From: Treponemataceae bacterium
GTDB taxonomy: Bacteria; Spirochaetota; Spirochaetia; Treponematales; Rectinemataceae
Assembly: GCA_963678065.2 (NCBI GenBank)
Contig: CAXXVZ010000003.1
Coordinates: forward strand, 768,001 to 832,000
DNA length: 64,000 bases
Direction of reading: 5' to 3'
Each line of letters opens with the position of its first letter. Position 1 is the stretch's first letter. Shown here one piece after another: positions 4,676 through 57,011 of this stretch. The notes beneath the pieces were generated by a model. That model saw only the letters and a list, made by a program, of their open reading frames with translations. It was not told the DNA's origin and did no database searches. Position numbers and translations under genes: made by a program.

Positions 4676-5677
4676 CTACATCATCGATTCGTCCATTACG
4701 GAGACCTGCTCCCGCAGATCGGCAAAGCGGGAGAGCCAGAAACCCTCTGTTTCCCAGTCGGGATTATTTATGAAAAAGGCACGGTCGGAAACCTGGCGGG
4801 CTGTCCAGGCCAGGTGGTACACCATGCGCATGAACCGCAGAGCTTCGACAAGACGCAGAGTTTCCGCCGGAAAGGGAAGAATCCTCTCGTATCCGTCGAT
4901 GAACGCCTCTATTTCCGGCCGGCACTGATCGACGGGACCGGGCAGGTTGAGCCAGAGGTCCTGGACCACCGGCCCCGTCATGCAGTCGTCGAAATCGATG
5001 AGCCTCAAGGAACCGTCCTTTTCGGAAAAAAGGTTGCCCCGGTGACAATCGCCATGGATCCGCTGCATCCGGAGTCCCTCGAACATCGGTGAAATGCGGT
5101 CGATGACCGAGCGGCACAGGCCGAGAAACGAGTCGCGGACGGTCGGATGGACAGCCCCGGAATACTCGAGTTCGTCGACGCTGCCCGCAGTCACGATGTC
5201 CGGATGGAGGATGGGCCTCGACGGGGCGTCCCGCCTCTTTCCCGCCTCGTGGCAGAGTCCTACGAGATTCCCGAGCCTTCTCCAATCCGTCGACGTTTCG
5301 GGATCGAAATTTCTGCTCCGTATGCGCGGATACATCGAGAAGAAAAACGTTTCGGCCTCCCCTCCGGGACCGGTATCCATCTCCATCTCCACGAGAGTCT
5401 CGCCTCCGGGGGAGACGAGGGGAGAGGCCACGGGAACTCCGGAGCGGCGACAGTCCTCCATGAACCGATGCTCCTCCTCGAGGGCATCCCGATCCCAGCG
5501 CCCGGGCCGGTAGAACTTGGCCACGACGCCGCTGCCGTCGTCCAGGGAAAACCCGTAGACCCGGTTGATATAGCTCGGGTATACGGCCCACTCCCCTGCC
5601 GGGATGAGGCCGAAGGCTGTTTCCACCGCCTCGGCGACAAGGTCGGGAGAAAGCAGATCGAAGGGCGCGTTTTCCAT
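4676..5677 (-). CDS. srkA: Stress response Ser/Thr kinase SrkA/RdoA (YihE) family
   Basis: SYINRVY, VAKFYRPGRW, IHGDCHRGN, IDFDD, QDLW motifs; start placed at MENAPF. Confidence 0.88.
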   Translation of the reverse strand: MENAPFDLLSPDLVAEAVETAFGLIPAGEWAVYPSYINRVYGFSLDDGSGVVAKFYRPGRWDRDALEEEHRFMEDCRRSGVPVASPLVSPGGETLVEMEMDTGPGGEAETFFFSMYPRIRSRNFDPETSTDWRRLGNLVGLCHEAGKRRDAPSRPILHPDIVTAGSVDELEYSGAVHPTVRDSFLGLCRSVIDRISPMFEGLRMQRIHGDCHRGNLFSEKDGSLRLIDFDDCMTGPVVQDLWLNLPGPVDQCRPEIEAFIDGYERILPFPAETLRLVEALRFMRMVYHLAWTARQVSDRAFFINNPDWETEGFWLSRFADLREQVSVMDESMM

Positions 5678-38146: not shown

Positions 38147-38218
38147 GCGACCGTCGTATAACGGCTATTACCCCAGCCTTCCAAGCTGGAGACGTGGGTT
38201 CGACTCCCATCGGTCGCT
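38147..38218 (+). tRNA. tRNA-Gly (TCC), CCA not encoded; likely integration site
   Basis: gcgaccg...ccagc-ct-TCC-aa-gctgg...gtgggttcgactcccat cggtcgc t cloverleaf; AT-rich sequence and integrase follow. Confidence 0.95.
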
Positions 38219-38328
38219 TAAAAATATATCATTATATCGCAAGTAATTGCGATCTGGTCAACCGAAAACGGAGACCGACATTCAACCACTGTTACCGGAT
38301 TGGTTACTAATCTGGCGAAGGGGAAAAA

Positions 38329-39579
38329 ATGCGGGCTCCGTTTTCTATTTTCAAACGCGAAAAATCGGGGAAAGTCGTCTATTGTGTGCGATTTTTCGCA
38401 GATGATGGCTCTATTGTAAAAACCGTTTCCCTGCATTCAGCCAAAAACCGGACAGCGGCCTCCAGGATGGCTCAGGCACTCCTCCTCAAAGATGGCATCC
38501 CGGTTTCTAGACAAGACAACCCTCCCGCGCTCGACTACTTGAAAGCCTTCTGGTCCATCGATTCCGATTACTACCTGTCGCGCTCCCTTCGGGGAGTGAA
38601 AATCTCAGCCCGCTATGTTGCTGAATCGTGGCGGGTCATCCACAACCACGGAGAATCCTTTCTCAAGGGAAAACGTTTCTATGACATCTCTCCTCTCCTT
38701 CTGGAAAAAATAGTGCGGGACCTGAGTCGTGCGGGAAAGGGACCACGGGTCATCAACCGACTTTTGCAGGCGATAAAGGTTCCCTATGCCGATTACTGCC
38801 GGCTGCACCGCCTGCCCAATCCACTCACTGCGGTGCTCAAACTACGCGAAAATCCTCTGGAACGTGGCTCCCTCACTCGTGATGAAGTCTCCGGCATGAT
38901 TGCATTTAAGGATATCAATCCTCGGGTGTACGCGGCATTCCTCTGCGGATCCCTTCTCGGCATGCGCATGGGGGAGGTCCGCGGGCTCGAATGGGGCGAT
39001 ATTGATGAAAAACGGAACCTTGTGCACATTCGCCACAACTGGGTTGAATCCAGTGAAGGCACAAAAGAGCCGAAATGGGGTAGCAGCAGGGATGTTCCGC
39101 TTCCTTCCATAGTCCTCAATGCTCTTCGTACTCTCGGGGAAATCTGTCCCCAAAAATATGCTGGCAGGTTTGTATTTTTCAATCAGACTACTAGGGAGCA
39201 TCCGATTTCCTCCCAATTCATGCAGACAGGTTTCAGGGAAATGCTGGACAGGTTTGGGATTGATGCGGATATGCGGGCTACCCGGAATATCTCCTTTCAT
39301 AGTTTGCGCCATACCTTCATCAGCCTTTCCCGTGCCGCAGGTGTCTCCGACTTCACTATACAACAGCTCGCAGGGCACTCGACTATTCAGATGACTGACA
39401 GGTACTCACACTCGAACGTGGTAGACTTTGCCGATGCCTGCCGGAAACTGGAAACAAGCTTGAAAGCGAAAGTGGTATCGCTTCCTGAAGATGCTGATGA
39501 CAAACGGCTTGCCGAACTCGAAGCCGAACTCGCCTCGCTCCATAGAAAAAAAGAACTTCGTACAGTCAATAGTGTATAA
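38329..39579 (+). CDS. Tyrosine recombinase / phage integrase
   Basis: GMRMGE (R), PKWG (K), FHSLRH (HxxR), LAGH, DRYSH (Y) all present. Confidence 0.93.
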   Translation: MRAPFSIFKREKSGKVVYCVRFFADDGSIVKTVSLHSAKNRTAASRMAQALLLKDGIPVSRQDNPPALDYLKAFWSIDSDYYLSRSLRGVKISARYVAESWRVIHNHGESFLKGKRFYDISPLLLEKIVRDLSRAGKGPRVINRLLQAIKVPYADYCRLHRLPNPLTAVLKLRENPLERGSLTRDEVSGMIAFKDINPRVYAAFLCGSLLGMRMGEVRGLEWGDIDEKRNLVHIRHNWVESSEGTKEPKWGSSRDVPLPSIVLNALRTLGEICPQKYAGRFVFFNQTTREHPISSQFMQTGFREMLDRFGIDADMRATRNISFHSLRHTFISLSRAAGVSDFTIQQLAGHSTIQMTDRYSHSNVVDFADACRKLETSLKAKVVSLPEDADDKRLAELEAELASLHRKKELRTVNSV

Positions 39580-42973: not shown

Positions 42974-43051
42974 AGTGTTGTGGGTTGGGGAAGGAGTGGG
43001 CAGATTGGGTGCATGCAGGGGATAGGAGTTGAGGGTACTAAAGGAGGTGGG

Positions 43052-44476
43052 GTGAGGGGGATTTCTCAGACGCATAGGCGGTATGACGAGTTTTTGTCGA
43101 GGTGGAAGCGGTGTCGAGATGCGTTTGCGGGTTCGGATGCGGTGAAGGAGGCTGGGGAGGTCTACTTGCCGCGGCTTCCGGGGCAGGATCAGGCGGCGTA
43201 TGACGCCTATAGAATGCGGACCGTGTTTTATGGCGCAGCGGGGCATACGCTGACGCTATACATGGGGTTGGCGTTTTCAAAGGCGCCGGTTATTTCGGGG
43301 CTCGTCGCGAATGATCCGCTTCTGGTGGATGCGAATATGGCGGGAAAGCCGTTTTTGGAGATTCTTGAGGATGCGCTCGAGAATGTGATCGGGATGGGCC
43401 GGTACGGGATTCTCGTGGATTATGCGGGGGAGATTCGGGCAGGGATGACGAAGGGGGATGCGGTGCGGGAACGGACGCGGCCGTATCTCGCAGCGTATGG
43501 GGCTCTGGATATAACCTTCTGGCACGAGGGGCGGCGCTCCGGGTATACGGTGCCGGATCATGTGGTGCTGCACGAGTTTTTCGAGTCGGAGGAGGCGTGT
43601 GAGGAGGAACAGTTCAGGGAGCTGATCCTCAGCGCTGAAGGGTATGTCGTGAGACTCTGGCGGAAGGTGAAGAACGAGGATGAGAAGGAAGAGTGGACGG
43701 TAGTGTCGACGGTGAGGCCGCTTCTGGATGACGCGCCGCTAGACCGGATTCCGTTTTTCTTTCTGGATCCGGAGTATGGCTCGTCGGAACCGGCCTGCCC
43801 TCCCCTGTTGGGTTTGGTGGATGTGAATATGTCGCATTACCGGACGATGGCGGATCTGGAGCACGGGAGGTTCTTTTGTGGTTTGCCGACGCCGATCTTT
43901 GCGGGGTTTTCGTTCCAGGAGGGAGAGACAGTGAAGCTTGGCTCGATGCGGGGGATCGCGTCGAGCGCTCCGGACGCAAAGGCGTATTACCTTGAGTTTA
44001 CAGGGGCGGGATTGTCGGCGCTTGAGTCGGCGGCACGTCAGAAGGAGCAGTGGATGTCGCAACTCGGCGGGTCGATGCTGGACTCGGAGAAGACGGGGAT
44101 CGAGGCGGCGGAGACGATACGGATGAAGAGGACGGGGTCGAATGCGACGCTCGCGAGTATGGCGCAGGCGGTGTCGGCGGTGATGACGAAGGTGTTGAAG
44201 TTGATGGTGCGGTGGGCTGGGGGAAATTCTGAGGGGGTGAGCGTGATGCTCTTGACGGAGTATATGCCAGCAGCGATTACGCCTGATGAGTTGTCGGTGT
44301 TGCTTCAGGCGGTGCAATCGGGGGATTTTAGGCGGGTGGATTGGCTTGCTCGGTGCAAGGTGGCGGGGATTCTCGCGCAGGATATGGATGCGGGGGAGAT
44401 TGAGAGGGAGCTTGGGAAAACCCAGAGCTATAGAATTCCCAAGAGGGAGACGGAAGGGGAACGAAAGGTTGCATAG
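43052..44476 (+). CDS. Portal protein (DUF4055-like)
   Basis: WKRCRDAFAG...VKEAGEVYLP...YDAYRMR, PPLLGL..VN..HYR..AD; follows terL; aaggaggt RBS before GTG. Confidence 0.85.
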   Translation: MRGISQTHRRYDEFLSRWKRCRDAFAGSDAVKEAGEVYLPRLPGQDQAAYDAYRMRTVFYGAAGHTLTLYMGLAFSKAPVISGLVANDPLLVDANMAGKPFLEILEDALENVIGMGRYGILVDYAGEIRAGMTKGDAVRERTRPYLAAYGALDITFWHEGRRSGYTVPDHVVLHEFFESEEACEEEQFRELILSAEGYVVRLWRKVKNEDEKEEWTVVSTVRPLLDDAPLDRIPFFFLDPEYGSSEPACPPLLGLVDVNMSHYRTMADLEHGRFFCGLPTPIFAGFSFQEGETVKLGSMRGIASSAPDAKAYYLEFTGAGLSALESAARQKEQWMSQLGGSMLDSEKTGIEAAETIRMKRTGSNATLASMAQAVSAVMTKVLKLMVRWAGGNSEGVSVMLLTEYMPAAITPDELSVLLQAVQSGDFRRVDWLARCKVAGILAQDMDAGEIERELGKTQSYRIPKRETEGERKVA

Positions 44477-44965: not shown

Positions 44966-45263
44966 CAGGCGGCTTTCGATCGATGGGGAAGCAGAATTCT
45001 CTGGATGCGATGGCAGCAGGATGATGAATTACGGAGGAAGAGCGAATGGGGACCCGGACGAGAGATCTCCGATCCTAGAGGAGGTCTCGAGGACGGGTGT
45101 CGGCAGGAGATGGCCGGAAGGTGCGATTCCGGGGCCGGGAGGCGAAGCCTTCCGGATGCAACAGGTGGATGTGGAAACGTTTTTTTTTGAGGAATGCGGG
45201 GAGACCGGAGCGGGTGGAGTCCGTTGACCGGAGACTCGTACGGAGGCCGCGACGGGATCCCCG

Positions 45264-45584
45264 GCCTCCTGTCACCACGTCCGTCGACCAGAGGTCCGGG
45301 CGTGGTGACAGGAGGCTATATAGCTGTGAGCCGAAGCGAATGCGAGCGAGGGTATTGTAAACATTTTTACGTGAGGCAGTGACGCCGTTCGGAGGACGCC
45401 CGTCGGCCGGAGGTCCGGGCGGACGGAGGACGACGGCACTGGCCCTTCTGGAGACGTCCGTCGGCCGGAGGCCCGGACGCCGACAGGAGGGCTTATGAGG
45501 ATTTTCAGGGTTGGAGGTTATGCGAACCGTCCAGAAACGGGGCTCATGTCACAAAAGGCCGCAGGCCGTGGCATGAGCCCCGTT
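45264..45584. repeat. Cluster of REP-like hairpins and a three-copy 25-bp motif
   Basis: cgyccgtcgrccrgaggyccggrcg at 45278, 45397, 45455; 16-bp stem 45264-45316; aaacggggctcatg/catgagccccgttt stem. Confidence 0.75.
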
Positions 45585-45687
45585 TGGGGTCGGTGAGCCC
45601 CAGGCGAGACTGATATGTGAGCCTGGGTTGATTTGTCAGTTGGTCCATGTGCAGCTGGTGAATTATTAGGTGCAGAAAAACGAGTCG

Positions 45688-45909
45688 TGGCACCCCTTCG
45701 TCCGATTTAAAGTGGCGGCATTTCCGCTAATGGTGTTGTATACGCCGGACCGGGCGGATCTTCCCCTACTGATTTTCAAACCATGATCCGCCCGGTCTGG
45801 GGCGAAGCCCGAGCGGAGCTCCCCATAGGAGCGGAGCGAGCGTGTACAACCCTTAGCGGATGTGCCGGGGTTTTACAACATTACTTTAGCTTCGGACGAA
45901 GGGGTGCCA
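45688..45909. repeat. Nested ~220-bp imperfect palindrome containing a degenerate attC-like unit
   Basis: 18-bp perfect IR tggcaccccttcgtccga/tcggacgaaggggtgcca; inner tccgctaa...ttagcgga and gaccgggcggatc/gatccgcccggtc. Confidence 0.75.
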
Positions 45910-46142
45910 TTGGTCGGGGGCCCATGAATTGTAGGACCAAGAATGTAAAACGTCCGGGAGCGTTCCAGGAGAACTCGGGAGCGACGTCCATGCGTCGAGT
46001 GCTGGCACTCGGGTGCTTTGTACAAGGAGCGTACCTGTACTGCGTGTGCGCATGAACGGGCACGATGGCTGCGCTGTATTGTTTATCGTAAACTGAAAGT
46101 CCCCTTTCCGGCAATTTACCATCGGCGCCGACAGTTGCCTGC

Positions 46143-46647
46143 ATGAGGATGTACTGGAAGTTTAACAGCAGCCCTACAATCCTGATTTTCCGGTTATCTG
46201 TATGGACGAGAAGCCCTACCAACTTCTTGGCGAGACGTGAGAGTCGATTCCCATGAAGAGGGGAACCAGCGCCCGACAGGACGGCGAATATATTCGGAAT
46301 GGAACCTGCTGCATCTTTTTGTTCACGGAAGCTTTGACTGGCTGGCGACATACCGATCCATGGGAATATAGAACCAAAGTCGAGTGGGCGAATCAGATCC
46401 GGTATCTGCTTGAAGTTGAATACCATGGAAGCTGGCTGAATAGTGCAGAAATCGAATTGAGTGCCATGAGCAAGCAGTACCTAGATCGAAGGATCGATAC
46501 AATAGATTCTTTGACAACGGGACTTCAGGCTTGGAAAACTAATCGAAATACTATACAGAAGGGTGCCGACTGGCAGTTCACCACACAAGATGCCCGGATC
46601 AAACTCAAGAGACTTTACCCACAGATTAAGATGTGATAAAATACTAG
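46143..46647 (+). pseudogene. IS630-family transposase remnant
   Basis: EDVLEV*QQPY...VICMDEKPYQL, HGSWLNSAEIE, WQFTTQDARIKLKRLYP; internal stop, frameshift and deletion; ends in ctag. Confidence 0.85.
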
Positions 46648-46746
46648 CCGCAACAGAATCATTTCATAGTCCGACCACAAATATTAGAAAGTAATGATCT
46701 TTTTGTTTCGGAGCATGAACATTTCATTATGAAAAAACGCAATTTC

Positions 46747-47859
46747 TTATTGATAAAACACTTGATCCATATTGCTCTTTATAATGCCCAACTTGTCCCA
46801 GACGCCCCAATGTGATCCTTGAGGTCCTTCATAGGAGGCTTTCCAACTTTCGTCAAAAGCCTCGAAATAGTAATAATCCACGTTGTTTTTACGAGCCCAT
46901 GAAATGAAATCACTAAAATATTTGACTGCGTTAGCAAGTGAAGGAATAGCATTCCCAATTGAGTTGCCATCGCTTGGCCAACCAGTCTCCGAAGCGATCA
47001 CAGCCTTCCCTCCTGCAGCAGCAACAATTTGTTTGTGAACGGTATCTATTCTCGATAGGGCTTTTCCAATATTTATGCCTTCCCAGTAGGGATAATAGTT
47101 TACCATGACTACATCAACAGCATTGATTACTGCAGGATGCGACAATAGAACCGAGTAGGTGTCAGCATAGGTCACCGGAATTCCAGGCGCAAGATATTTG
47201 ACACGATTAATGTAATCGATCAGCTGGGTTTCAGTGAGCTCACCACGAAGAAGAACTTCACTCCCTACAATGAGCATATCGGCATCCCCCGCCTTTGCGA
47301 GGGCAATTAGATTTGAAAGTTCCAACTCATTAACATCGCTATCACTGCTGATCCATGCGCCGATAGCGGTCTTAAGTCCTAACTCATGCGCCATCGAACC
47401 GGTTTTTTCGAGACCATTTGTACAGCCAAATGTCCGTATGTTTGTGGTGTAGGGGGCGATTATTTTTAGTCGAGACTGGATCTGCTTTATGCTCAGTGAC
47501 GAACCCTTGTTAGGATCCTGACCATCAACGTAGGGGCTGAAATCAAATCCATATGCCTTGTAAGTGACTGGTGTAGGTGCCAAGGTCGTAGTTGTTGTTG
47601 CTGTCATGGTTGTTGTCGTGGTGACAGAGGGTAAAGTAGTTGTCGTCGTCGTGGTGACAGAAGGTAAGGTGGTTGTTGTTGTCGTGGTGACAGAAGGTAA
47701 GGTAGTTGTTGTCGTTGTGGTGACAGAAGGTAAGGTAGTTGTTGTCGTTGTGGTGACAGAAGGTAAGGTAGTTGTTGTCGTCGAGTCGGTGATATTTTTA
47801 CATGCAACGGATGAAAAAGCTGTTAGCACTACTAGAAACCATATATGGTTAATTTTCAA
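46747..47859 (-). CDS. Lipoprotein with Thr-rich stalk and GH17-like beta-1,3-glucanase domain
   Basis: SSVAC lipobox, FSPY, VGSEVLLR, NYYPYWEG, SETGWPS, YFEAFDE.WK. Confidence 0.85.
   Translation of the reverse strand: MKINHIWFLVVLTAFSSVACKNITDSTTTTTLPSVTTTTTTTLPSVTTTTTTTLPSVTTTTTTTLPSVTTTTTTTLPSVTTTTTMTATTTTTLAPTPVTYKAYGFDFSPYVDGQDPNKGSSLSIKQIQSRLKIIAPYTTNIRTFGCTNGLEKTGSMAHELGLKTAIGAWISSDSDVNELELSNLIALAKAGDADMLIVGSEVLLRGELTETQLIDYINRVKYLAPGIPVTYADTYSVLLSHPAVINAVDVVMVNYYPYWEGINIGKALSRIDTVHKQIVAAAGGKAVIASETGWPSDGNSIGNAIPSLANAVKYFSDFISWARKNNVDYYYFEAFDESWKASYEGPQGSHWGVWDKLGIIKSNMDQVFYQ
47609..47782 (-). repeat. 33-bp coding tandem repeat, about 5 copies (TTTTTTTLPSV)
   Basis: ggtgacagaaggtaaggtagttgttgtcgttgt units with synonymous variation. 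Confidence 0.93.
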
Positions 47860-48118
47860 TTTCCTCTTCCTACGGGCTATGTTTGTCCAATACGCAAATT
47901 CCTATCGCTCTTCTATATCTATTGTCATTTGAACTCACACAAGGGAGCATACTCAATTCTCCAGATGACCCAGTCGCTGAAACACATTATGACTCTTTCA
48001 GCTTCGCCAAGTACTTTTATTTTCGTGGATGATACAAACTTCGAGACTACCTTGGTTTCACAGCTCGCCAACAGGACAGAAACACTTCCCGAGGAATCGA
48101 AAGCTTCTGGCTGCGAGG

Positions 48119-50104
48119 TTACTTCTTATGCATTTTCTCCAACATGGCATCCACCTGCTTTAATATTGCCTGAGCTCCAGTACTCCGCGGATCATTGGCC
48201 GGCATAAGTTTAAGGGAAAGCATTATTTCTTCCTTACTATGTTCCAAATACTTGTCTTCGATGCATGTCATCAACGCTTGCATAAGCTTAGGACCCTTTT
48301 CGAGCTTAGCGGCGGCATGTGTTGCCAGATAGTAAGCCGATCCAAGGTTAAGATGAGCCTGGGGATCGTTTGCATTTGCATCTACGCTCTTCTTCAGTTC
48401 TGGCAACAATCCCTGAAAAGTAGTCCATGCCTGCTCATACTTACCCTCGTTAATTAATATAAGGCCATCTCGTATCTTCTTTGAGTCTGGATCCTGCGCG
48501 GGGGGCACCTTCACACCTTCGGGTACATCTTTTAAGAGGGTGGCTAAACGGGTCTTCTCCGTAGCGAGGTCAGAGATCTCTTTGGAGTATTTGTTTTCCA
48601 CATCGATAGAATGTGCTTTATCTAGCACAGACTGTATAGTTTTCAAAACATACTCAAGATCGGATTTTTGCATGGCGAAGGCGTATCTGACTTCAGGGGT
48701 TGTCAAAGCCGCGACATTCATGGAAGCAAGATTAAGTAGATTACTAGCAATAGCGAGCAACGGATATGGAAGCCATTTTACGGTGCCTTTCACCTCACCT
48801 GTGACAATCTCTCCCTGTGAGGCTGACGGATCGATGCTCAGGACAAGCAGCCATCGGAGTGTTATGCCTGTTCTCCAGTTCTGAACTTGCTCTTTCTCCT
48901 TGGTCGAGAGGACCTTGCCATCATTGATGCCTTTTTCAATATCTATTTTTTGCATCGTTGCCTCAGAGAGGGCGTTTGGCAATGGTACATCAATTGCCAA
49001 AGATCCAAGATCAGGAGCACCGATCACCGCATTCAGCGACTCTACAAGACGTTTGCCCCACAAGCCGGCACGCTCCATAAAATACACCATTTCCTGGACA
49101 CATAGTTCTTTGGACAGCTTCGGATAGGCTTCGCCATACAGGGATGCCATCTGAAGCGATGAAGAACACGATGCGTATGCGATGCTCGCCGCTAGTAAGG
49201 CAGCACGTAGACTGTCCTGCCCCGTCAAGGCATTCTTAACGGTAAGCTTCGTATAGGCGTCTTCGTATCGCTCATTCAGGATTGCGTCGAGGCCAAGCGC
49301 ATATGTCTCCTTCTCCGGCCTTAATTGCGCTGCAGGGACCTGTTGGCGCGTTTCCGTGACGACGACATCCACGAAATCCTGGAGACAGAGGTAGGATATA
49401 GCTGCAATTGATGTGTCAGACTTTGGAAGGCTCAATACATGGAGATCCTTATGAATGTCTGGCCTCTTCCTTGGGAGTAGAAACCTCGCATAGATAGCCG
49501 CGAGTTGTGGATTCTCCTTTTCGTGAATGACCGTTATCTCAACTCGCGCTTCTTTCATCATCTCTTTCGTCCTATAAGCCACATTGTCCTTGAGAAAGAG
49601 AATGGCGCGCGGGTATATACCATCTCTCGTAGGTAGAAGTTCGACGGTCTTGACAAATTGTGCATAGAATGGTTGCACCTTGGCTATGGTCGGCGTGCAC
49701 TCCAAGTATCGGAACATCGCTAGAGCCATGCCTTTATCGTCTTCCTTCCAGCCATCGAGAGTGAATCTCCCAAGGGTAAACTTAGGGTGTTCTTTAACGA
49801 AGGTCTCAAGTTCTTTGTAGGAAGAGACGAATTGGGCAGCCAAACGTAAACCGCAGAGCGAGGCAAAACGGAGGTCCAGGTTGCTGGGTTCAGCGTCAGA
49901 TGCCTGCATAAGCAAACGACATGCTTTTATCTCCCCTTCCGAACCTGAGCTACGAATCTTGAGGTTTTCGCTAATTTCCAGGTTTTGATCAATAATGGCC
50001 AGTGCCCCTCTGACAATGGTTTCGGTTGGCGTTCCTGACTGTGCGTGGCCGAAGATTAGGAAAGGAACAAGGTAACAGATGCAGAATAGTAAAAATGCCT
50101 TCAT
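48119..50104 (-). CDS. Secreted helical/TPR-like protein, cassette-borne
   Basis: Signal peptide MKAFLLFC..., TPR-like DPQAHLNLGSAYY; starts after GTTCGGC and an aggag RBS. Confidence 0.7.
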   Translation of the reverse strand: MKAFLLFCICYLVPFLIFGHAQSGTPTETIVRGALAIIDQNLEISENLKIRSSGSEGEIKACRLLMQASDAEPSNLDLRFASLCGLRLAAQFVSSYKELETFVKEHPKFTLGRFTLDGWKEDDKGMALAMFRYLECTPTIAKVQPFYAQFVKTVELLPTRDGIYPRAILFLKDNVAYRTKEMMKEARVEITVIHEKENPQLAAIYARFLLPRKRPDIHKDLHVLSLPKSDTSIAAISYLCLQDFVDVVVTETRQQVPAAQLRPEKETYALGLDAILNERYEDAYTKLTVKNALTGQDSLRAALLAASIAYASCSSSLQMASLYGEAYPKLSKELCVQEMVYFMERAGLWGKRLVESLNAVIGAPDLGSLAIDVPLPNALSEATMQKIDIEKGINDGKVLSTKEKEQVQNWRTGITLRWLLVLSIDPSASQGEIVTGEVKGTVKWLPYPLLAIASNLLNLASMNVAALTTPEVRYAFAMQKSDLEYVLKTIQSVLDKAHSIDVENKYSKEISDLATEKTRLATLLKDVPEGVKVPPAQDPDSKKIRDGLILINEGKYEQAWTTFQGLLPELKKSVDANANDPQAHLNLGSAYYLATHAAAKLEKGPKLMQALMTCIEDKYLEHSKEEIMLSLKLMPANDPRSTGAQAILKQVDAMLEKMHKK

Positions 50105-50124
50105 GGTTTCTCTCCTTTCCTGTT

Positions 50125-50194
50125 GCCGAACGTCACAAATCAGCGGACCTGAGCCTGTTGCGGGCTCGAGGTCCGCTGATTTGTGACGTTCGGC
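50125..50194 (-). other. attC-like recombination site (70 bp)
   Basis: GCCGAAC...GTTCGGC ends, 26-bp stem, overlaps the upstream TAG, followed by RBS and ATG. Confidence 0.75.
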
Positions 50195-51192
50195 TATTGA
50201 TTCTCGTTCTTCCACGATTCGTATCTCTCGAAGGTATCAGGATCGATCGTACCGTTGAGATTTCGATCACCGAGCGTGAATGCGGCCTTGATCGTCTTGC
50301 CAATCAGAACCTTCCCTTGCTTGTCGATTCTGACTTGGCTCTTTTTCGCGAAGACAACGTCCTGTCCAGCGGCTTGCACAAAGATGGCAGAGTCCTGCGC
50401 AAGTCGTCCCTTCCATATCTGATTCTTAATCTGATTTTTAGTCTGGAACTCGATCACATCTTGGGCGTCCTTGGTTTTCGCCTTGGTAAGTTCATTGACA
50501 ATGTCGTCAATGATTTTCACAGTTTCGTCCGAAGGTTTGTTAATGGGTAATTTGGAAAAACGTTTGTATCGCCCAAAGCTCTGGCAGCCCCAGATAATTT
50601 GCCAACCGCCAAGAATGGCAAAGAAGCTGTGGCCACCATCAGATACAGAGTTCGTAATCGTTATGATGATGTTCCACAACCCTACAATGATGAGAGCAAC
50701 TCCATAGACAATCATCCCGAACGGTGTTGGGGAAGTGACTATCCAGACACCTTCGACGAGTAGGAATATCCCGATTAACCCGAGAATCACGTTGATTGGG
50801 TTATCTCCCATTCCTCTGAAACCCATTGCAATCGCAATGAGACCGAAAACTATGCTCCCGATCCCCGACGGTCTGAGGATCTTCCTTATTAGCCTGTAGT
50901 TTGAAACTCTTTGCAGATCGTCTAATCGCGTGTCTGTGTGCTCCGAGCCCAGTTTTTGGCTTAGTGACTCTATGATGTGCTCTGCTGCAATCCGTGCGTC
51001 CTCAAGCTGCCTATCGTGGGTTCTCAGTTTCTCCTCTATGCAGTCTCCTTTGCCTCTTTGTAGCAAGAGGGATCGTGCATAGTCGATTGCTTCAGTCGTG
51101 TAGTCTTCCGGTTTGTCGAGCATGCACAAGAGTTTCTCGTCATTGCACCTCTCCAATCGCTCTCTGATGTCTGCCTGTAGTGTCATGTTCAT
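50194..51192 (-). CDS. Membrane protein (about 4 TM helices), gene cassette
   Basis: Hydrophobic core; flanked by GTTCGGC (51210-51204) and its exact complement GCCGAAC (50194-50188). Confidence 0.75.
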   Translation of the reverse strand: MNMTLQADIRERLERCNDEKLLCMLDKPEDYTTEAIDYARSLLLQRGKGDCIEEKLRTHDRQLEDARIAAEHIIESLSQKLGSEHTDTRLDDLQRVSNYRLIRKILRPSGIGSIVFGLIAIAMGFRGMGDNPINVILGLIGIFLLVEGVWIVTSPTPFGMIVYGVALIIVGLWNIIITITNSVSDGGHSFFAILGGWQIIWGCQSFGRYKRFSKLPINKPSDETVKIIDDIVNELTKAKTKDAQDVIEFQTKNQIKNQIWKGRLAQDSAIFVQAAGQDVVFAKKSQVRIDKQGKVLIGKTIKAAFTLGDRNLNGTIDPDTFERYESWKNENQ

Positions 51193-51203
51193 CCCCCTCG
51201 ATT

Positions 51204-51222
51204 GCCGAACATACGTTTATCC
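51204..51222 (-). other. Right half of an attC site
   Basis: ggataaacgtat-GTTCGGC just before RBS gaggggg and ATG 51192; left half replaced by IS110 remnant. Confidence 0.55.
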
Positions 51223-51242
51223 TTCTTCTATGAGAACATCCG

Positions 51243-51716
51243 TTAAGCGGCAGTTTGAAGGATTTTTTCGAGTTCTCGCACCTTTCGGCGGTAGATGCGG
51301 GCGTCGAAATAGCGATAGACCTCCTGGTTTTTCAGCATGAAGTACATCGCGACGAAGGTCTTGCGGACGATGGCGGCCTGTACTTTGTTCCTCCGCTTCG
51401 ACGAATGTCGGGCGCGAAAACGCTCAAAACCCTCGTTCCCACGAACGACGTGCTCGAGCCCCTGCAGGATGAATCGATACGAGGTCCTGCGTCCTCGGCG
51501 GTTCAGCCCTCCTTCACGCAGCCTCTTTCCTGACGCATCGACCTTCTCCACGCTCGAGAGATAGGACGTCATGTTCTTCACGGAGGAAGGAAAGCGCTCG
51601 ATCCTCACGATATCCGACATGAATACGACGGCCCCAAGGATGCTTATGCCCGAGATACTGATCAAAAGTTCCGTTTCCCGCTGAAATCGGCGCACCCCTA
51701 TGTCTGACCTGTACTG
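51243..51716 (-). pseudogene. IS110-family transposase C-terminal remnant
   Basis: LLISISGISILGA...DI..IERF...SY......DASG...G...RRG...AIVRK pattern; RuvC (DEDD) domain missing. Confidence 0.75.
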
Positions 51717-53645
51717 GTCGAGTAGACATGTCATCCTCAAAGCGTTGTACAACGAGTAAGAGAATGCACACCCCTCATAGAACCGAACTTGCGGATTTCA
51801 AGCATTCGGCTCTTCGACGATATTCACCACATGCGCTCTTGAGAGAATACAGGTAATGGTAGATTCGTGGTTTCGGCAGCTCGTGGCGTTCTAGGTAGAT
51901 GGAAAAGGCAACCCAGTCCATGCAATTCTTCTGGCTCCGCCTATTTATCCACTTGAACACCATTCGCCGTACCCTATGTAAAAGTTTATAATACTTTGAG
52001 AGTTTCTGCTTATCCCATAGTAGCGAAAATGACCCAGAAGTTTGGCCTTGAGTATTGTCCACCATTCCTGTATTGGTACTCGGTTTCTGATATTCTTCAA
52101 CCATTGGTTCATTTCCTTCAGCTTCACAGCCAGTTTCTTGCGATCAGTCTTGTGGCCGAGCTCGAAGAATCCGCTTCGCGTTTTATCCATGTAATGGGTA
52201 AAATCGAGGAAATTGAATGTCTCCGGCTTCGTACCATTCCCCTTCGCGTCCCATCCGGCGAATCGTCCGAACTCAATAATCCGCGTCTTCTCTTTTGTCA
52301 GCTCCAGATTGAATTTATCAAGCCGTCCCATGAGCGCTTTGAGTATCTTTTCCGCTTCGTCCTTGTACTGTACGCAGATTACAAAGTCATCAGCATACCA
52401 CGGCCATTTCCACTACCCCACGGCATCGAGGCTTCACTACGCGCTTAAGCCCAATAGGTCGAGCACATAATGAAGATATACGTTGGCGAGTATGGGGGAG
52501 ACGATCCCACCTTGGGGAGTTCCCGTAACACTCTCGTGAAACGTTCCTTCCTCCATCTAGCCGTTGTGTAGAAAGCGGGCGATCAGGTGCAGCAGGTTCG
52601 GGTCGCTTATCCTGTGCTCCAGGAACTTCAGTACCCAGGAATGCAAAACGTTGTCGAAAAATCCCTTGATGTCGCAGTCAATCACATGATTGACCGGTTT
52701 CGTCATGATGATCTTGTCGACACGTTCCACTGCCTGGTGACAGCTCCTCTTGGGGCGAAATCCATAGGAGCAGTCGAGAAAGTTGGCTTCGTATACCGCT
52801 TCCAGTATCCGGGCTATCCCTGTTTGGACTATCTTGTCCTCTGTCGAGGGGATACCAAGCGGCTGCAGTTTCTTGTTGGCCTTGGGGTGTATTGTATACT
52901 CCTCGCACCGGCTGTGGCTTATAGGCCTGACTTTTCTATCTCACCACGAGATTCATCAAGTTTTCGTCGAGGGTTCGTCCGTGTTCTTCTATTCCGATCC
53001 CGTCGATTCCCGCCGCCTTTCCTTCCTTGAGTATCTCAGAGCACTCTCTCAGATTCGCTTCATTGAGCAAATAGGCCGCGTTGTTGATCTTTTCCCCGTT
53101 TCCTCTCCTTGTGATCTCGGCCATGAGGGTCAGTTTCGTTTGTATGGTAGCCTCGTCTCCTGTACGATCTATGTCCCTCTGCATACCGCCGCCGATCCCT
53201 TCGAGTGAACTGTAGTCCTCGCGGGCCGTTACCCCGCTACACCTCTACTACGAATCAGTCCGACTCCCGATGGTCATCTCCGCGTCCTCGCCTTTCCAGC
53301 TTGTCAGCGGATATCCCCATATTTCGGGAACCCAGCAGGGCCCCCAAGTTCCTGTGTTTTCCGTTCGTGGCCAGACCGCGGCCTTCGACACCGATGAAGC
53401 GATGCAGCGCTCGCCCTGACGTGCCGTACCGTGTTGCCTTCCGGCTATTGAACGCCGTCGGCCTCCATGACTTGTCCATTTCGGAGCTCAATACCTTCGC
53501 TCGCGTTGCGGTCTAGGCAATTCCTTCAAGCGGCTTTATCGCTTCCCGTTACCGGTAACGATGCGCTGTCAGTGGCAGGTGGTCGGCTCGACCTTGCCTG
53601 CGCCGGACTCTAGCCGGCAAGAAAACACAAGCTTTCTTGGCGCAC
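51717..53645 (-). mobile_element. Full-length group II intron with decayed RT (class E-like)
   Basis: 5' GTGCGCCAAG at 53645; domain V gagccgaatgcttgaaatccgcaagttcggttc; domain VI ending ctactcgac at 51717. Confidence 0.88.
51830..53184 (-). pseudogene. ltrA: Group II intron reverse transcriptase/maturase with stops and frameshifts
   Basis: KAAGIDG, PLGIP, SYGFRP, DIKGFFD, GTPQGG, YADDF (52398-52384), FNFLDFTH, GHFRYYG; no endonuclease domain seen. Confidence 0.9.
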
Positions 53646-53659
53646 TCAATAGTGGACAA

Positions 53660-53704
53660 ATGGGGCGCAGCGGAATCCCCGTCCAGTGTAGCGCGTTGTT
53701 AATC
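53660..53704 (-). other. Left half of an attC site, truncated 14 bp before the intron 5' end
   Basis: GATTAAC-aacgcgctacactggacggggattccgctgcgccccat, 5 nt after the cassette gene stop. Confidence 0.65.
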
Positions 53705-53709
53705 GATAC

Positions 53710-54570
53710 TCATGTCTGTTTGTCCACGTGGCCACTTTCCATAGTGTCCGGATTCTTGACGACAACCGCACCTGCTCCAGACGGAATCCATGCACTCAGA
53801 CGCATTTCCTCATCCTGTGTCAACGGGAAAGCTGTTAGCGTCGCATGTGACCCCCATGCTTGAAGGATTGCCTTAAGATACCAGACCTGCGGCTTTGTCA
53901 ATGCGCTTACGAATTCGACTTGAACGGCCTTGGGATACATCTGCCAAACGAGATTGCGGAAGACCTCCGCGTTGTCAGGCAAACAGTTAGCCCAGATCTG
54001 TTCTGTTCTTTGCGATCGCTCGCGAAAGAGACACGATCCCCATTCGTCGGGAATAGCTGAGAGAAGCTCGTCTATATCTGAGTCAGGTGAATACGCAGTC
54101 AAACACCAAAAAGGCCGTTTCTGAGTGATTTCAGATTCAATCTTTGTGCTATTGATCTTCGTTCTCACTCGCGCAAGGACGTCATCTGGTGTTGGATGCA
54201 CCAACGAAAGAGCCCGCGCAACATACTCAAGGGGAGTTCCACCTTCGTCTCCCAAGGAATCAGATGTCAGATAGAAGTTCCCAAGGTTCGCTTGAGCTAC
54301 ACTGTTCCAGATATTCAGTCTTATCGCCTCCCGACCAAGGGAGATCGCAGTCACCAAATCCTGTTTGAGCCATGCCTGTGCCGCTGCAGTTGCTCTTTGT
54401 CCTGACTCTCTACGAGCAGCAGCGTGTTCCTCAACCGTTTCTATTCGATTTGAGCGACAATGAGGACAGGCATATAGACCCGGTGCCATTAACCTGTGAC
54501 AATCGATACATCGGTCAAGGCCTCTGAGGAACATGTATCCAAATGATTTGCGTTGTGTTGATTCTTCCAT
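53710..54570 (-). CDS. Zn-ribbon plus TPR-like protein, gene cassette
   Basis: CIDC...CPHC, AIRLN...AQANLG; ATG follows GTTAGTT and a ggag RBS. Confidence 0.7.
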   Translation of the reverse strand: MEESTQRKSFGYMFLRGLDRCIDCHRLMAPGLYACPHCRSNRIETVEEHAAARRESGQRATAAAQAWLKQDLVTAISLGREAIRLNIWNSVAQANLGNFYLTSDSLGDEGGTPLEYVARALSLVHPTPDDVLARVRTKINSTKIESEITQKRPFWCLTAYSPDSDIDELLSAIPDEWGSCLFRERSQRTEQIWANCLPDNAEVFRNLVWQMYPKAVQVEFVSALTKPQVWYLKAILQAWGSHATLTAFPLTQDEEMRLSAWIPSGAGAVVVKNPDTMESGHVDKQT

Positions 54571-54581
54571 ATTCTGTCTCC

Positions 54582-54643
54582 AACTAACGTCTGCGGCATC
54601 AGCGGCAGGGCGAAGCGCTGTCCGTCTGGATGCTGTTGTAGAC
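54582..54643 (-). other. attC site (canonical architecture, R'' one base short)
   Basis: gtcta(a)caacaGCATCCAGacggacagcgcttcgccctgccgCTGATGCcgcagacGTTAGTT; L''/L' boxes with extrahelical bases. Confidence 0.85.
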
Positions 54644-54706
54644 ATCCCGACACCAACACAACAAGCAGCACGGGCTCTCTACGCCTGGCAGCTCGGAGCG
54701 CATCCG

Positions 54707-55275
54707 TCACTGGGCAGGCACGAAGCCCATCACGGACATGACCTCTGCGCTCAGCAGATGATCGCTTCCGCTGGGATACACGTATCTACCATCCTTCACG
54801 CAAGCGTCGAAGCCGAGATCGACTTCTCTGCACATGGCGTGGAACTCGTCTATCGTCCTCAAGACGCCCAGCGTCGTGCAACCAACGTAGCCTTCTACTG
54901 CAGCGCGCACTAGCGAATCATGAATGTAGCTGAGAGTTGCGACGTGGTCTGACCATACTGCGACCACGTACGGTCTGAACCCCAACGCACTGGTGTTCTG
55001 GCGCGTGATGAAGTCCTTCTCAACTCCGGTGGCCGAATCATTCACAAGGTGCTCTCCAGACCTGACCCAGCTGTCAAGGTCTCCCCAGTTCGACGAGTCA
55101 ATTGGGGACACACGCAGCTCAAAGAAGGCTGTTCGGGCCTGGGCGTGCAGGTGTCATTCTCCGGACAGACGGTCTCCAGGATGGACTGGCAGAAGTACCT
55201 CTGCGGATTGAACTGCGCCCGGAATGTGGAGTCAAAGACGAACACTACTCCACCTTCGCGATCGACAGTATTCAT
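54707..55275 (-). pseudogene. Cassette gene of unknown function, probably frameshifted (ORFs 55275-55042 and 55111-54707)
   Basis: Two overlapping minus ORFs fill the interval between two attC sites. Confidence 0.45.
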
Positions 55276-55318
55276 GCGCACACCCCCTTCTGCGTAGATG
55301 GACGTCTGTTGCCGGTGT

Positions 55319-55425
55319 GCCCAACATTGGCTTGACCTTTAAACCCCGTGCTTGAGCGAAGCGATGGCTTGTCGTGGTTCTTGCGTAATCTTCTCGCAAG
55401 AACCACGACAAAGGGGCTTTATAAG
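55319..55425 (-). other. Long attC site whose left end is replaced by a group II intron 3' end
   Basis: cttataaagcccc pairs with ggggtttaaagg; internal ttgtcgtggttcttgcg stem; ends aagccaat-GTTGGGC. Confidence 0.75.
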
Positions 55426-55850
55426 GTCGAGTAGGCCAGGGAAATTTCACCCCCAGCCCCTCACAGAACCGTACGTGATAGGCTCCCATCATACGGCTCT
55501 TTATATTCAACCAGTACCATACCAGCTTAGTTCCCAGTGCTCGAAAAGCTGCGGCAATCGTCTGGCTTCATTTGCGATAAACGCGAAGGCCATGTACCAA
55601 CTCCGCTTGAGTTTCCTGTATCGATTCTTTGCCCACTTAACTAAAATCGCATTGAACATCTCACAGATGCCGACCAACGCAGTTCATCGAGACTTCCCAT
55701 AATAGTTTAGCCATCTCCTCTGCGATCGGAGCGATCACTTCATTATGACTAAGCAATACAACTATGCCTTTATTGCTGCATAAGGTTTTTGCTTTATCAC
55801 CGTTAGGAGGGTGGTAATTCTTTTGAGGACAAAAATTAGATGTGCGCAAC
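55426..55850 (-). mobile_element. Second group II intron, 3' fragment (class D-like)
   Basis: Domain V gagccgtatgatgggagcctatcacgtacggttc, domain VI ...ccctggcctactcgac; maturase remnant WLNYYG...LVKWAKNRYRKL...PQLFEHW; left boundary approximate. Confidence 0.85.
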
Positions 55851-56011
55851 TTCCCTCGCCGCAACAGAGTGGAAGCATGACAACGCATCCTTACTCATCG
55901 ACGCGGGGAACACCTCCACAAGTATGACTCTATTTTATTCTTGTTTTGCATGCTGTCAACTAAGAATCTTCTCAATAACAAGAGGCTGTCTAGGAAATGA
56001 TTCCCGGACAT

Positions 56012-56101
56012 GAAAGGGCGCGATTGGCTGTTCACTACTTAGGATGCTCGGATCAAACTCAAGAGACTTTATCCACAGATTAGCATGTAACAGAGTACAA
56101 G
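56012..56101 (+). pseudogene. Second IS630 3'-end remnant
   Basis: gatgctcggatcaaactcaagagactttatccacagatta is nearly identical to the first remnant around 46590-46630. Confidence 0.85.
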
Positions 56102-56270
56102 CTACAAATATTATTTAAAATTTGGGGTCTTCTCAAACCAAAAGCCTCATCGTACACCTACATCTGAGTATTATGAAGTTATTGCGGTTTTTCATGCTTT
56201 GACCGCGGGTATCGGGTATGGAGACCGCGGATAGTTAGCTGGCGGAAAGGAAATCTGGGAGAGGAAAGGA

Positions 56271-57011
56271 GTGACGAGAGGGATGACGTTGAAGGAGTTG
56301 GTGAGCGCCGCGAGGGTGGAGATTGAGAAGGGAGAGGGGGCGGATCGGGGGGTGCTTGCGGAGCTTGTGGGGAAGATGGAGCCGCAGGTTGTGAGGGATC
56401 AGGCGGCGCTCGCGCGGCTTGAGAAGAGGTCGCTGGTGGTGGGGGATCGGAGTCCTGAGGAGGTGGCGAAGGTTTTTCAGGATTTTGAGGATTTGAAGAA
56501 TGCAGTTGAGGAGCTGCGGGCGGCTTCGGAGGAGAAGGATCGGAGGCTTGAGAAGGTGGCGAAGGAGCGGGCGGTTTCGGAGAAGGGGCTCGCTGATGCG
56601 CTTGCGGGGGAGAAGTCGGCGGTGGCGCGGTTAGTCTTGGACAATGGGCTGACGGCGGAGTTGTTGCGGGCGAATGTGAAGGCTTCGTTGATTCCGGCGG
56701 CGAAGGCGTTGATTCGGGAGAAGGGGATTCTGTCGATTGAGTCGGAGGGGGATATCAGGCGGGCGGTGGCAACGCTGAAGCGGGAGGGGAAAGAATCGAG
56801 GGTGGAGCTTGCGGCCTATATCACGGAGTTTGCGGCTTCGGATGAGGGGAAGGAGTTTGTTCAAGCTCCGGCGAATTCGGGAGGTGGCGCGAGTGAGGCG
56901 AGGGGTGCGGGGGCTGTGCAGGGGAAGGTGATGCGGGAGGAGGTTTTCGCGGCGCTGCCACCGAAGGAGAAGGCCCGGTTTATGGCGGAGAAGGGGGCGC
57001 TGGTGGCGTAG
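56271..57011 (+). CDS. Capsid scaffold protein
   Basis: Coiled-coil charged sequence, FVQAPANSGGGA, terminal FAALPPKEKARFM; directly upstream of capsid. Confidence 0.75.
   Translation: MTRGMTLKELVSAARVEIEKGEGADRGVLAELVGKMEPQVVRDQAALARLEKRSLVVGDRSPEEVAKVFQDFEDLKNAVEELRAASEEKDRRLEKVAKERAVSEKGLADALAGEKSAVARLVLDNGLTAELLRANVKASLIPAAKALIREKGILSIESEGDIRRAVATLKREGKESRVELAAYITEFAASDEGKEFVQAPANSGGGASEARGAGAVQGKVMREEVFAALPPKEKARFMAEKGALVA

Follow-up and report, generated by a model that had tools for sequence, protein, structure and literature searches.

Organization of the locus

The window analysed here is a continuous 64,000-nt stretch of a Treponemataceae genome, and the locus of interest lies on its minus strand. 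Read in that direction, the locus runs from a cassette ORF that terminates at 53710 through an attC left part, 14 nt, a group II intron, 12 nt, an IS110-family remnant and the right part of another attC to a second cassette ORF (51192–50194). A sequence-only reading of the window had proposed this layout, which is present with corrections and with one overlooked layer, an IS3-family element. The upstream attC remnant (attC-A, 53704–53660) contains R'', L'' and the left arm and is broken at a deletion point. It matches the intact attC of locus L122 as far as 53660, which bears out the left half that had been proposed. The downstream remnant (attC-B, 51221–51204) retains L', the spacer and R' and precedes the second cassette ORF. 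As had also been proposed, the two parts do not pair, and no attC stem is formed. A viral match (L121) considered as a relative of attC-A is not an attC, and a search of 69 family genomes for intact alleles of the cassettes at 55274–53710 returned attC matches only.

Between the attC remnants, nucleotides 53658–53646 belong to the right inverted repeat of an IS3-family element, of which they form the inner 13 bp, and comprise IBS2 (exon positions −13 to −8), a single base and IBS1 (−6 to −1). The preceding base, 53659, fits neither the attC-A nor the IS3 side specifically. The intron, which is of IIB type and has both ends intact, spans 1929 nt (53645–51717) and is followed by the outer 12 bp of the same repeat (51716–51705), with the terminal CA at the end. 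The IS110-family remnant (51704–51227) consists of the last 153 transposase codons (stop at 51245–51243) and an intact right end. It is followed by a 2-nt recombination core (51226–51225) and then, up to 51222, by 3 nt beyond the arrangement seen in 22 of 24 relatives; these may be a short duplication or the result of a shifted insertion. Contigs from two public runs, belonging to two studies (one of them possibly the source sample), span 47752–55402 without a difference, so misassembly is unlikely.

A prophage head module, with its portal gene at 42980–44476 and its scaffold gene at 56271–57011, encloses the cassette cluster together with a gene for a glycoside hydrolase 17 protein (45000–56200). 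A tRNA followed by a tyrosine-integrase-like ORF, whose translation was read by eye, is positioned at 38147–39579 and is probably the left border of the prophage. The sole IntI scoring over the cut-off is ~700 kb from the cluster. IS630-like right-end remnants at 46134–46653 and 56012–56107 (+) bracket the cluster in like orientation and are 78% alike over 96 nt; they may represent a composite transposon or a recombination scar. The remnant at 56012–56107 lies immediately upstream of the truncated 5' side of another intron, described below. Two repeats were also observed within the cluster. One, between two cassette ORFs (50194–50125, minus strand), is a near-perfect inverted repeat of 26 bp whose symmetry far exceeds that of the other attC sites. 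The other, a 33-bp tandem repeat at 47576–47816, codes for a linker rich in Thr within the glycoside hydrolase 17 protein.

The group II intron and its pairing partners

The intron is recognized above threshold by Rfam models RF02005 and RF00029, with a D1-D4-6 match at 53611–53379 (125.9 bits) and a DV/DVI match at 51814–51717 (43.7 bits). It has a GUGYG 5' end, a DV containing an AGC triad, a DVI and an AC 3' end. The description of the intron as complete-ended therefore stands for its ends and fails for its protein gene (53172–51841), in which the YADD motif is present and the reading frame is interrupted by frame changes and, within the RT match, by one TGA and three TAG codons. The intron is thus without the intact RT/maturase gene expected of a mobile element. 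The protein may resemble those of bacterial class E, and no endonuclease domain is present in the protein of an intact relative (L006). Introns in three related genomes are 74–81% identical to the focal intron in DNA sequence. Its sense is that of the cassettes and of the lost IS3 transposase.

The Id3 loop and the EBS2 stretch were placed by the Rfam alignment, without use of the exon sequence. EBS2 (53478–53473) forms 6/6 Watson-Crick pairs with exon positions −13 to −8, and EBS1 in the Id3 loop (53451–53446) forms 6/6 with positions −6 to −1. A G at 53386 that pairs with the C at +1 is the probable EBS3; its position is derived from co-variation rather than a full fold, and the aligned base also fits +1 in both relatives (2/2) for which both ends are available. 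Together the three guides account for 13/13 pairs with the flanking exons. The pairing expected between the intron and its current 5' exon is therefore perfect, and the exon concerned is IS3 repeat rather than attC. The 14 nt that had been set aside as a spacer are the intron's predicted binding site, and with the first 12 nt after the intron they contain the 25-bp IS3 right inverted repeat.

The same guides fit attC sites poorly. Against nine intact attC sites of the genome the best score is 9/13, a value also reached at 5656 positions in the genome, and against attC-A it is 8/13; no other 13/13 site is present in the genome. This difference argues that the intron homed to the IS3 end and not to attC, contrary to the attC-directed insertion first supposed. 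Related introns appear to carry guides suited to their own sites. Those of L008 and L011 pair with their exons at 6/6 (EBS1) and 5/6 (EBS2) with EBS3 paired, and those of L012 at 11/12, including two wobbles. L006 reaches only 8/13 with its own exon, which fits the L012 guides at 11/13. The guides of the window intron match the exons of three relatives at merely 2–5 of 13 positions. Three relatives, all from one genome, have their junctions in a repeated hairpin; other junctions are before a transposase gene or in intergenic sequence, and none of the relatives with readable junctions is inside an attC. The three hairpin copies (L012, L014 and L018 in G013) interrupt their repeated element at the identical base and represent a further variant of homing to repeats.

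The IS3 right inverted repeat

Removal of the intron joins 53658–53646 to 51716–51705 in a motif of 25 bp. A degenerate version of this motif was found at 12 loci in the genome collection. In four of these an IS3 transposase frame ends just inside the repeat, and L034 is a whole element of 1273 bp with both repeats and a NF033516 score of 347.9 bits (cut-off 160). Three loci in one Spirochaetia genome are identical to the window at 25/25 positions; they have a common inner flank and three different outer flanks, as is the behaviour of IS ends. These three are located at contig ends, and their inner flank reads as an IS3 C-terminus by hand translation; an IS3 transposase was not found in that assembly. 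The remaining five loci are stubs or contig ends. The assignment to the IS3 family is thus made through the relatives, in which a terminal repeat of ~25 bp ending in CA lies beside an IS3 transposase; in the window copy the transposase and the left end are deleted, and searches yielded no intact allele. The IS3 element itself is absent from this genome, where the best other match (20/25) is an IS3-like stub. A fit to the intron is confined to the right repeat; the left repeat of L034 differs across the IBS1 stretch.

The codon directly after the IS3 tip encodes Asp, and the corresponding position is Asp in 7/41 and Glu in 12/41 IS110 relatives. The codon therefore fits the IS110 protein family, indicating that the IS3 element had inserted into the IS110 gene. 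No further intron within an IS3 repeat turned up among 301 genomes of another class, where 16 pattern matches comprised four empty IS3 ends and otherwise unrelated sequence, or in five genomes with the IS3 end, viral contigs or plasmids. Homing of this intron lineage to IS3 ends is consequently represented by one perfect site. A phylum-wide search with the repeat pattern gave matches in 12/401 genomes, about equal to the reversed control.

An IS110 lineage directed to attC sites

The remnant in the window matches PF02371 (E 3.8e-7), only the C-terminal domain being present, which confirms the C-terminal fragment of the sequence-only reading; its sequence begins at 51704 and not at the intron end. 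It shares 68–69% amino acid identity with L052 (G000 C3:114012–115445), an intact copy elsewhere in this genome that occupies an attC of the resident integron, ~700 kb away. L052 has a readable predicted upstream guide RNA and is a ready candidate for assay. Searches of the family and of metagenomes yielded 35 loci, of which six distant ones (36–39% amino acid identity, other targets) and one fragment were left out, giving a set of 28 loci with protein identities of 60–91%. Three of the distant relatives (L054, L055 and L084) share another short repeat as target, which suggests reprogramming within the clade.

The right end is present in 24 of the 28 loci, and in 22 of these (19 of 21 distinct right flanks) it abuts an attC L'/R' motif; many loci are near-identical copies and hence not independent. 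The two exceptions are the window copy, shifted by 3 nt, and L065, with a changed target. An attC left half is present in 11 of 14 long left flanks, and nine rebuilt empty sites fold as attC hairpins. The proteins contain the DEDD and Transposase_20 domains (PF01548 and PF02371), score above the NF033542 cut-off and are 385 aa long. A non-coding region of 237–278 nt precedes the transposase gene, and only 16 nt follow it. Sub-terminal inverted repeats of the lineage span only 5–6 bp, and an SG motif is present without GL-P.

The upstream non-coding region, judged by sequence, has the design of a bridge/seek RNA. The 5' strand of an internal loop is complementary to the core and right target at 9/9 positions in 16 of 19 cases, at 8/9 in two and at 7/9 in one, and the 3' strand matches the left target and core at 4–6 of 6 positions. 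Guide changes in L060, L062 and L065 track changes in their targets. Of the candidate donor-binding guides, one, a 7-nt match to the right end and core, is kept in 22/22 aligned upstream regions, and a putative second one matches at only 6/9 by eye. The window copy has lost its own guide, and the usual 5' guide is a poorer fit to the target of this copy. The intact relatives thus insert at one fixed attC position and have predicted guides that match and co-vary with their targets, in accord with the earlier proposal that this IS110 lineage is attC-directed. The guide RNA would be expressed and would function in target choice.

The lineage appears to be unnamed and new in detail. No element name was found among 78 IS110 homologues, and among the best 25 of 219 plasmid proteins none exceeded about 28% identity.

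A second intron lineage at attC sites

The other intron of the window is a 3' fragment on the minus strand (55426–55700, Rfam D1-D4-2) with its 3' end at 55426. It belongs to a different lineage, whose protein is 56% identical to multicopy proteins of Sinorhizobium meliloti and which appears class D-like by sequence. Copies are found in this genome (G000 C3:118121–120039, C3:121079, C3:124612, C3:125593, C3:849865 and C5:773494–775412) and at L097, and two full-length copies in this genome have open RT frames. The insertions are in the top strand of attC, on the R''/L'' side and in cassette sense. All five 5' junctions in this genome follow the attC R'' box and spacer, and all four 3' junctions lead into attC, in two cases at a point 5 nt further on. 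A relative in another genus (86% amino acid identity) likewise occupies an attC, unlike one at 74%.

EBS1 pairing in the attC copies is only 3/6 to 5/6 by eye, so structure may help targeting by this lineage. The proposal that attC hairpins act as a shared landing pad thus receives some support from the second intron. It is not supported by the focal intron, whose guides fit an IS3 terminal repeat, and is weakened further for IS110, where sequence guides explain the targeting.

A probable nest of three insertions trimmed by a deletion

We interpret the junction as a nest, in which an intron occupies an IS3 end, the IS3 element an IS110 element and the IS110 element an attC, cut by one deletion; we assign this reading a probability of roughly 85%. 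An IS110 element with an upstream-encoded bridge/seek RNA would have recombined into attC-B, with the 2-nt core just before the L' box. An IS3-family element would then have entered the IS110 transposase gene at a codon boundary, with 153 codons left before the stop; the nesting places the IS110 insertion before that of IS3. Guided by ordinary EBS1, EBS2 and EBS3 pairing, the IIB-type intron would have entered the right inverted repeat of the IS3 element by reverse splicing, at a point 12 bp from the tip, and the split repeat should immobilise that IS3 end. A deletion from the middle of upstream attC-A to the inner edge of the IS3 repeat would have removed the right half of attC-A, possible intervening cassettes, the left half of attC-B and the IS3 body. 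The left two thirds of the IS110 element, comprising the left end, the guide RNA and the first ~230 codons, would have been lost in the same step. Each of these mechanisms has published precedent. The intron insertion and the deletion may have occurred in either sequence. None of the three elements is functional any longer, and the junction has ceased to be usable as an attC. An earlier scheme of successive attC-directed insertions followed by a deletion is therefore retained for the multiple insertions, the deletion and the attC-directed IS110 element, and is replaced for the intron, which targeted the IS3 end.

The attC-A sequence runs to 53660 and the IS3 sequence begins at 53658. No more than 1 nt thus separates the end of the deletion from the inner limit of the repeat, a boundary shared by IBS2; random deletion does not predict such a coincidence. 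Chance, a bound transposase or intron-induced loss may each account for this end point. IntI is rejected as the cause on the argument that the join does not fall at an R box, and microhomology between attC-A and IS3 3' ends does not fit in spacing.

The junction without the intron had been described as an imperfect hairpin. It does fold, at −10.2 kcal/mol relative to −5.05 ± 1.79 for shuffled sequences, a value reached by 1% of 500 shuffles for a window picked post hoc. Its arms derive from the attC remnant and from IS110 codons, so the hairpin is not an attC. It arises only after the deletion and could matter only if the deletion preceded the intron.

The intron might instead have been directed, like the IS110 element, to an attC hairpin or to this hybrid one. 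Folding of the intron-less junction better than 99% of shuffles, occupation of attC by the second intron lineage (5/5 and 4/4 of its 5' and 3' junctions) and the published occurrence of IIB introns beside attC (PMC7923331, in excerpt) are consistent with such a model. It is nevertheless highly improbable, given that the paired exon is IS3 sequence, that the guides reach at best 9/13 at nine intact attC sites and 8/13 at attC-A, and that relatives lie in other repeats, IS ends or intergenic sequence. The right arm of the hairpin is moreover IS110 coding sequence, and the EBS2, the AGC triad and the cassette sense are all unlike those of IIC-attC introns. A more plausible variant, which we still regard as doubtful, places the deletion first and has the intron home last into the orphan IS3 repeat of the fused junction, perhaps helped by the chance hairpin. 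The whole −13 to +1 target survives and the hairpin exists solely after deletion, which speaks for this order. Against it, contigs of four runs (which drop rare variants) contain no intron-less allele, and the intron gene is heavily decayed, suggesting that the intron is not recent.

It is unlikely, though conceivable, that the deletion was caused by arrival of the intron, with DNA upstream of the RNA–DNA hybrid lost in repair and the paired IBS2–IBS1 segment spared. The IS3 sequence kept on the 5' side is 13 nt, or 14 at most, exactly the IBS2–IBS1 segment, and no microhomology with known IS3 inner flanks is seen. Since the deletion stops where the EBS2–IBS2 hybrid stops, retrohoming would on this model have produced a one-sided deletion of several kilobases. 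The case is a single event, however, and the edge is also that of the inverted repeat, so a bound transposase or chance explains it equally well; a shallow look at the 5' junctions of relatives gave no clear sign of such losses.

Relation to known systems

Published systems are compared here as described in excerpts of the papers cited. The closest precedent for the intron target is RmInt2 of S. meliloti GR4, which resides in inverted repeats of ISRm17 (PMC4615759, PMC5894124). It is likewise an IIB-type intron without endonuclease, and its IBS region (−14 to +1) coincides with the IS terminal inverted repeat. The focal intron differs in targeting an IS3-family right repeat and in being a single dead copy. 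Nor is it RmInt1-like: the best S. meliloti match to its intact relative is a protein of 45% identity. With group IIC-attC introns such as S.ma.I2 (PMC3001079, PMC7923331) the focal intron shares a position at a cassette junction. Those introns insert in the bottom strand, against cassette sense, lack EBS2 and use the hairpin; none of these properties applies to the focal intron, which is in cassette sense in IS3 sequence, without the TTGT/T site, and has an EBS2 (6/6) and an AGC rather than a CGC triad. One IIB intron directly after an attC is described in the excerpted text of PMC7923331.

For the IS110 lineage, the nearest functional counterparts are the IS1111-attC elements ISKpn4, ISPst6 and ISPa25, which have seekRNAs encoded downstream (PMC11187229). 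Both groups have a DEDD transposase and each inserts at one fixed position at one attC end, and in both, two short guides overlap at the core with the top-strand complement 5' of the bottom-strand match. The lineage differs in its upstream RNA region (237–278 nt), its 16-nt downstream segment and its 385-aa protein. It also lacks the long downstream non-coding region, sufficiently long sub-terminal repeats and GL-P----S(t)G motif of IS1111 elements, of which a few relatives do have an upstream non-coding region (PMC11187229). The upstream non-coding region, the 2-nt core and the absence of a target duplication are shared with IS621 and ISEc21, and the protein is similar in length to those of the ISEc21 cluster (345–385 aa; PMC11208160, PMC11187229). 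In contrast to these elements, the lineage targets attC and, read in transposase sense, has the guide order of IS1111.

Among the main texts of open-access papers, our searches listed no report of an upstream-RNA IS110 element in attC, of class D introns at such sites or of introns that occupy an IS3 end. The IS3-end target of the focal intron accordingly appears new in detail, from one case.

Implications

The junction itself is wreckage and carries little weight. The intron would add IS3 right ends to the IS ends that serve as homing sites, and its position illustrates that an intron beside half an attC need not target attC. If the intron-induced deletion, unlikely as we consider it, did occur, an intron without endonuclease would have fused an IS end to an attC half, and group II introns would reshape integron arrays by repair accident, leaving a signature of 13–14 nt. 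Because it joins an upstream RNA to the IS1111 guide order, the IS110 lineage lends itself to testing whether the placement of the RNA and the order of the guides are linked. Its intact copy in this genome and the three naturally occurring guide changes are useful assets, and the lineage would constitute a natural set of RNA-guided recombinases for one base step of one attC type.
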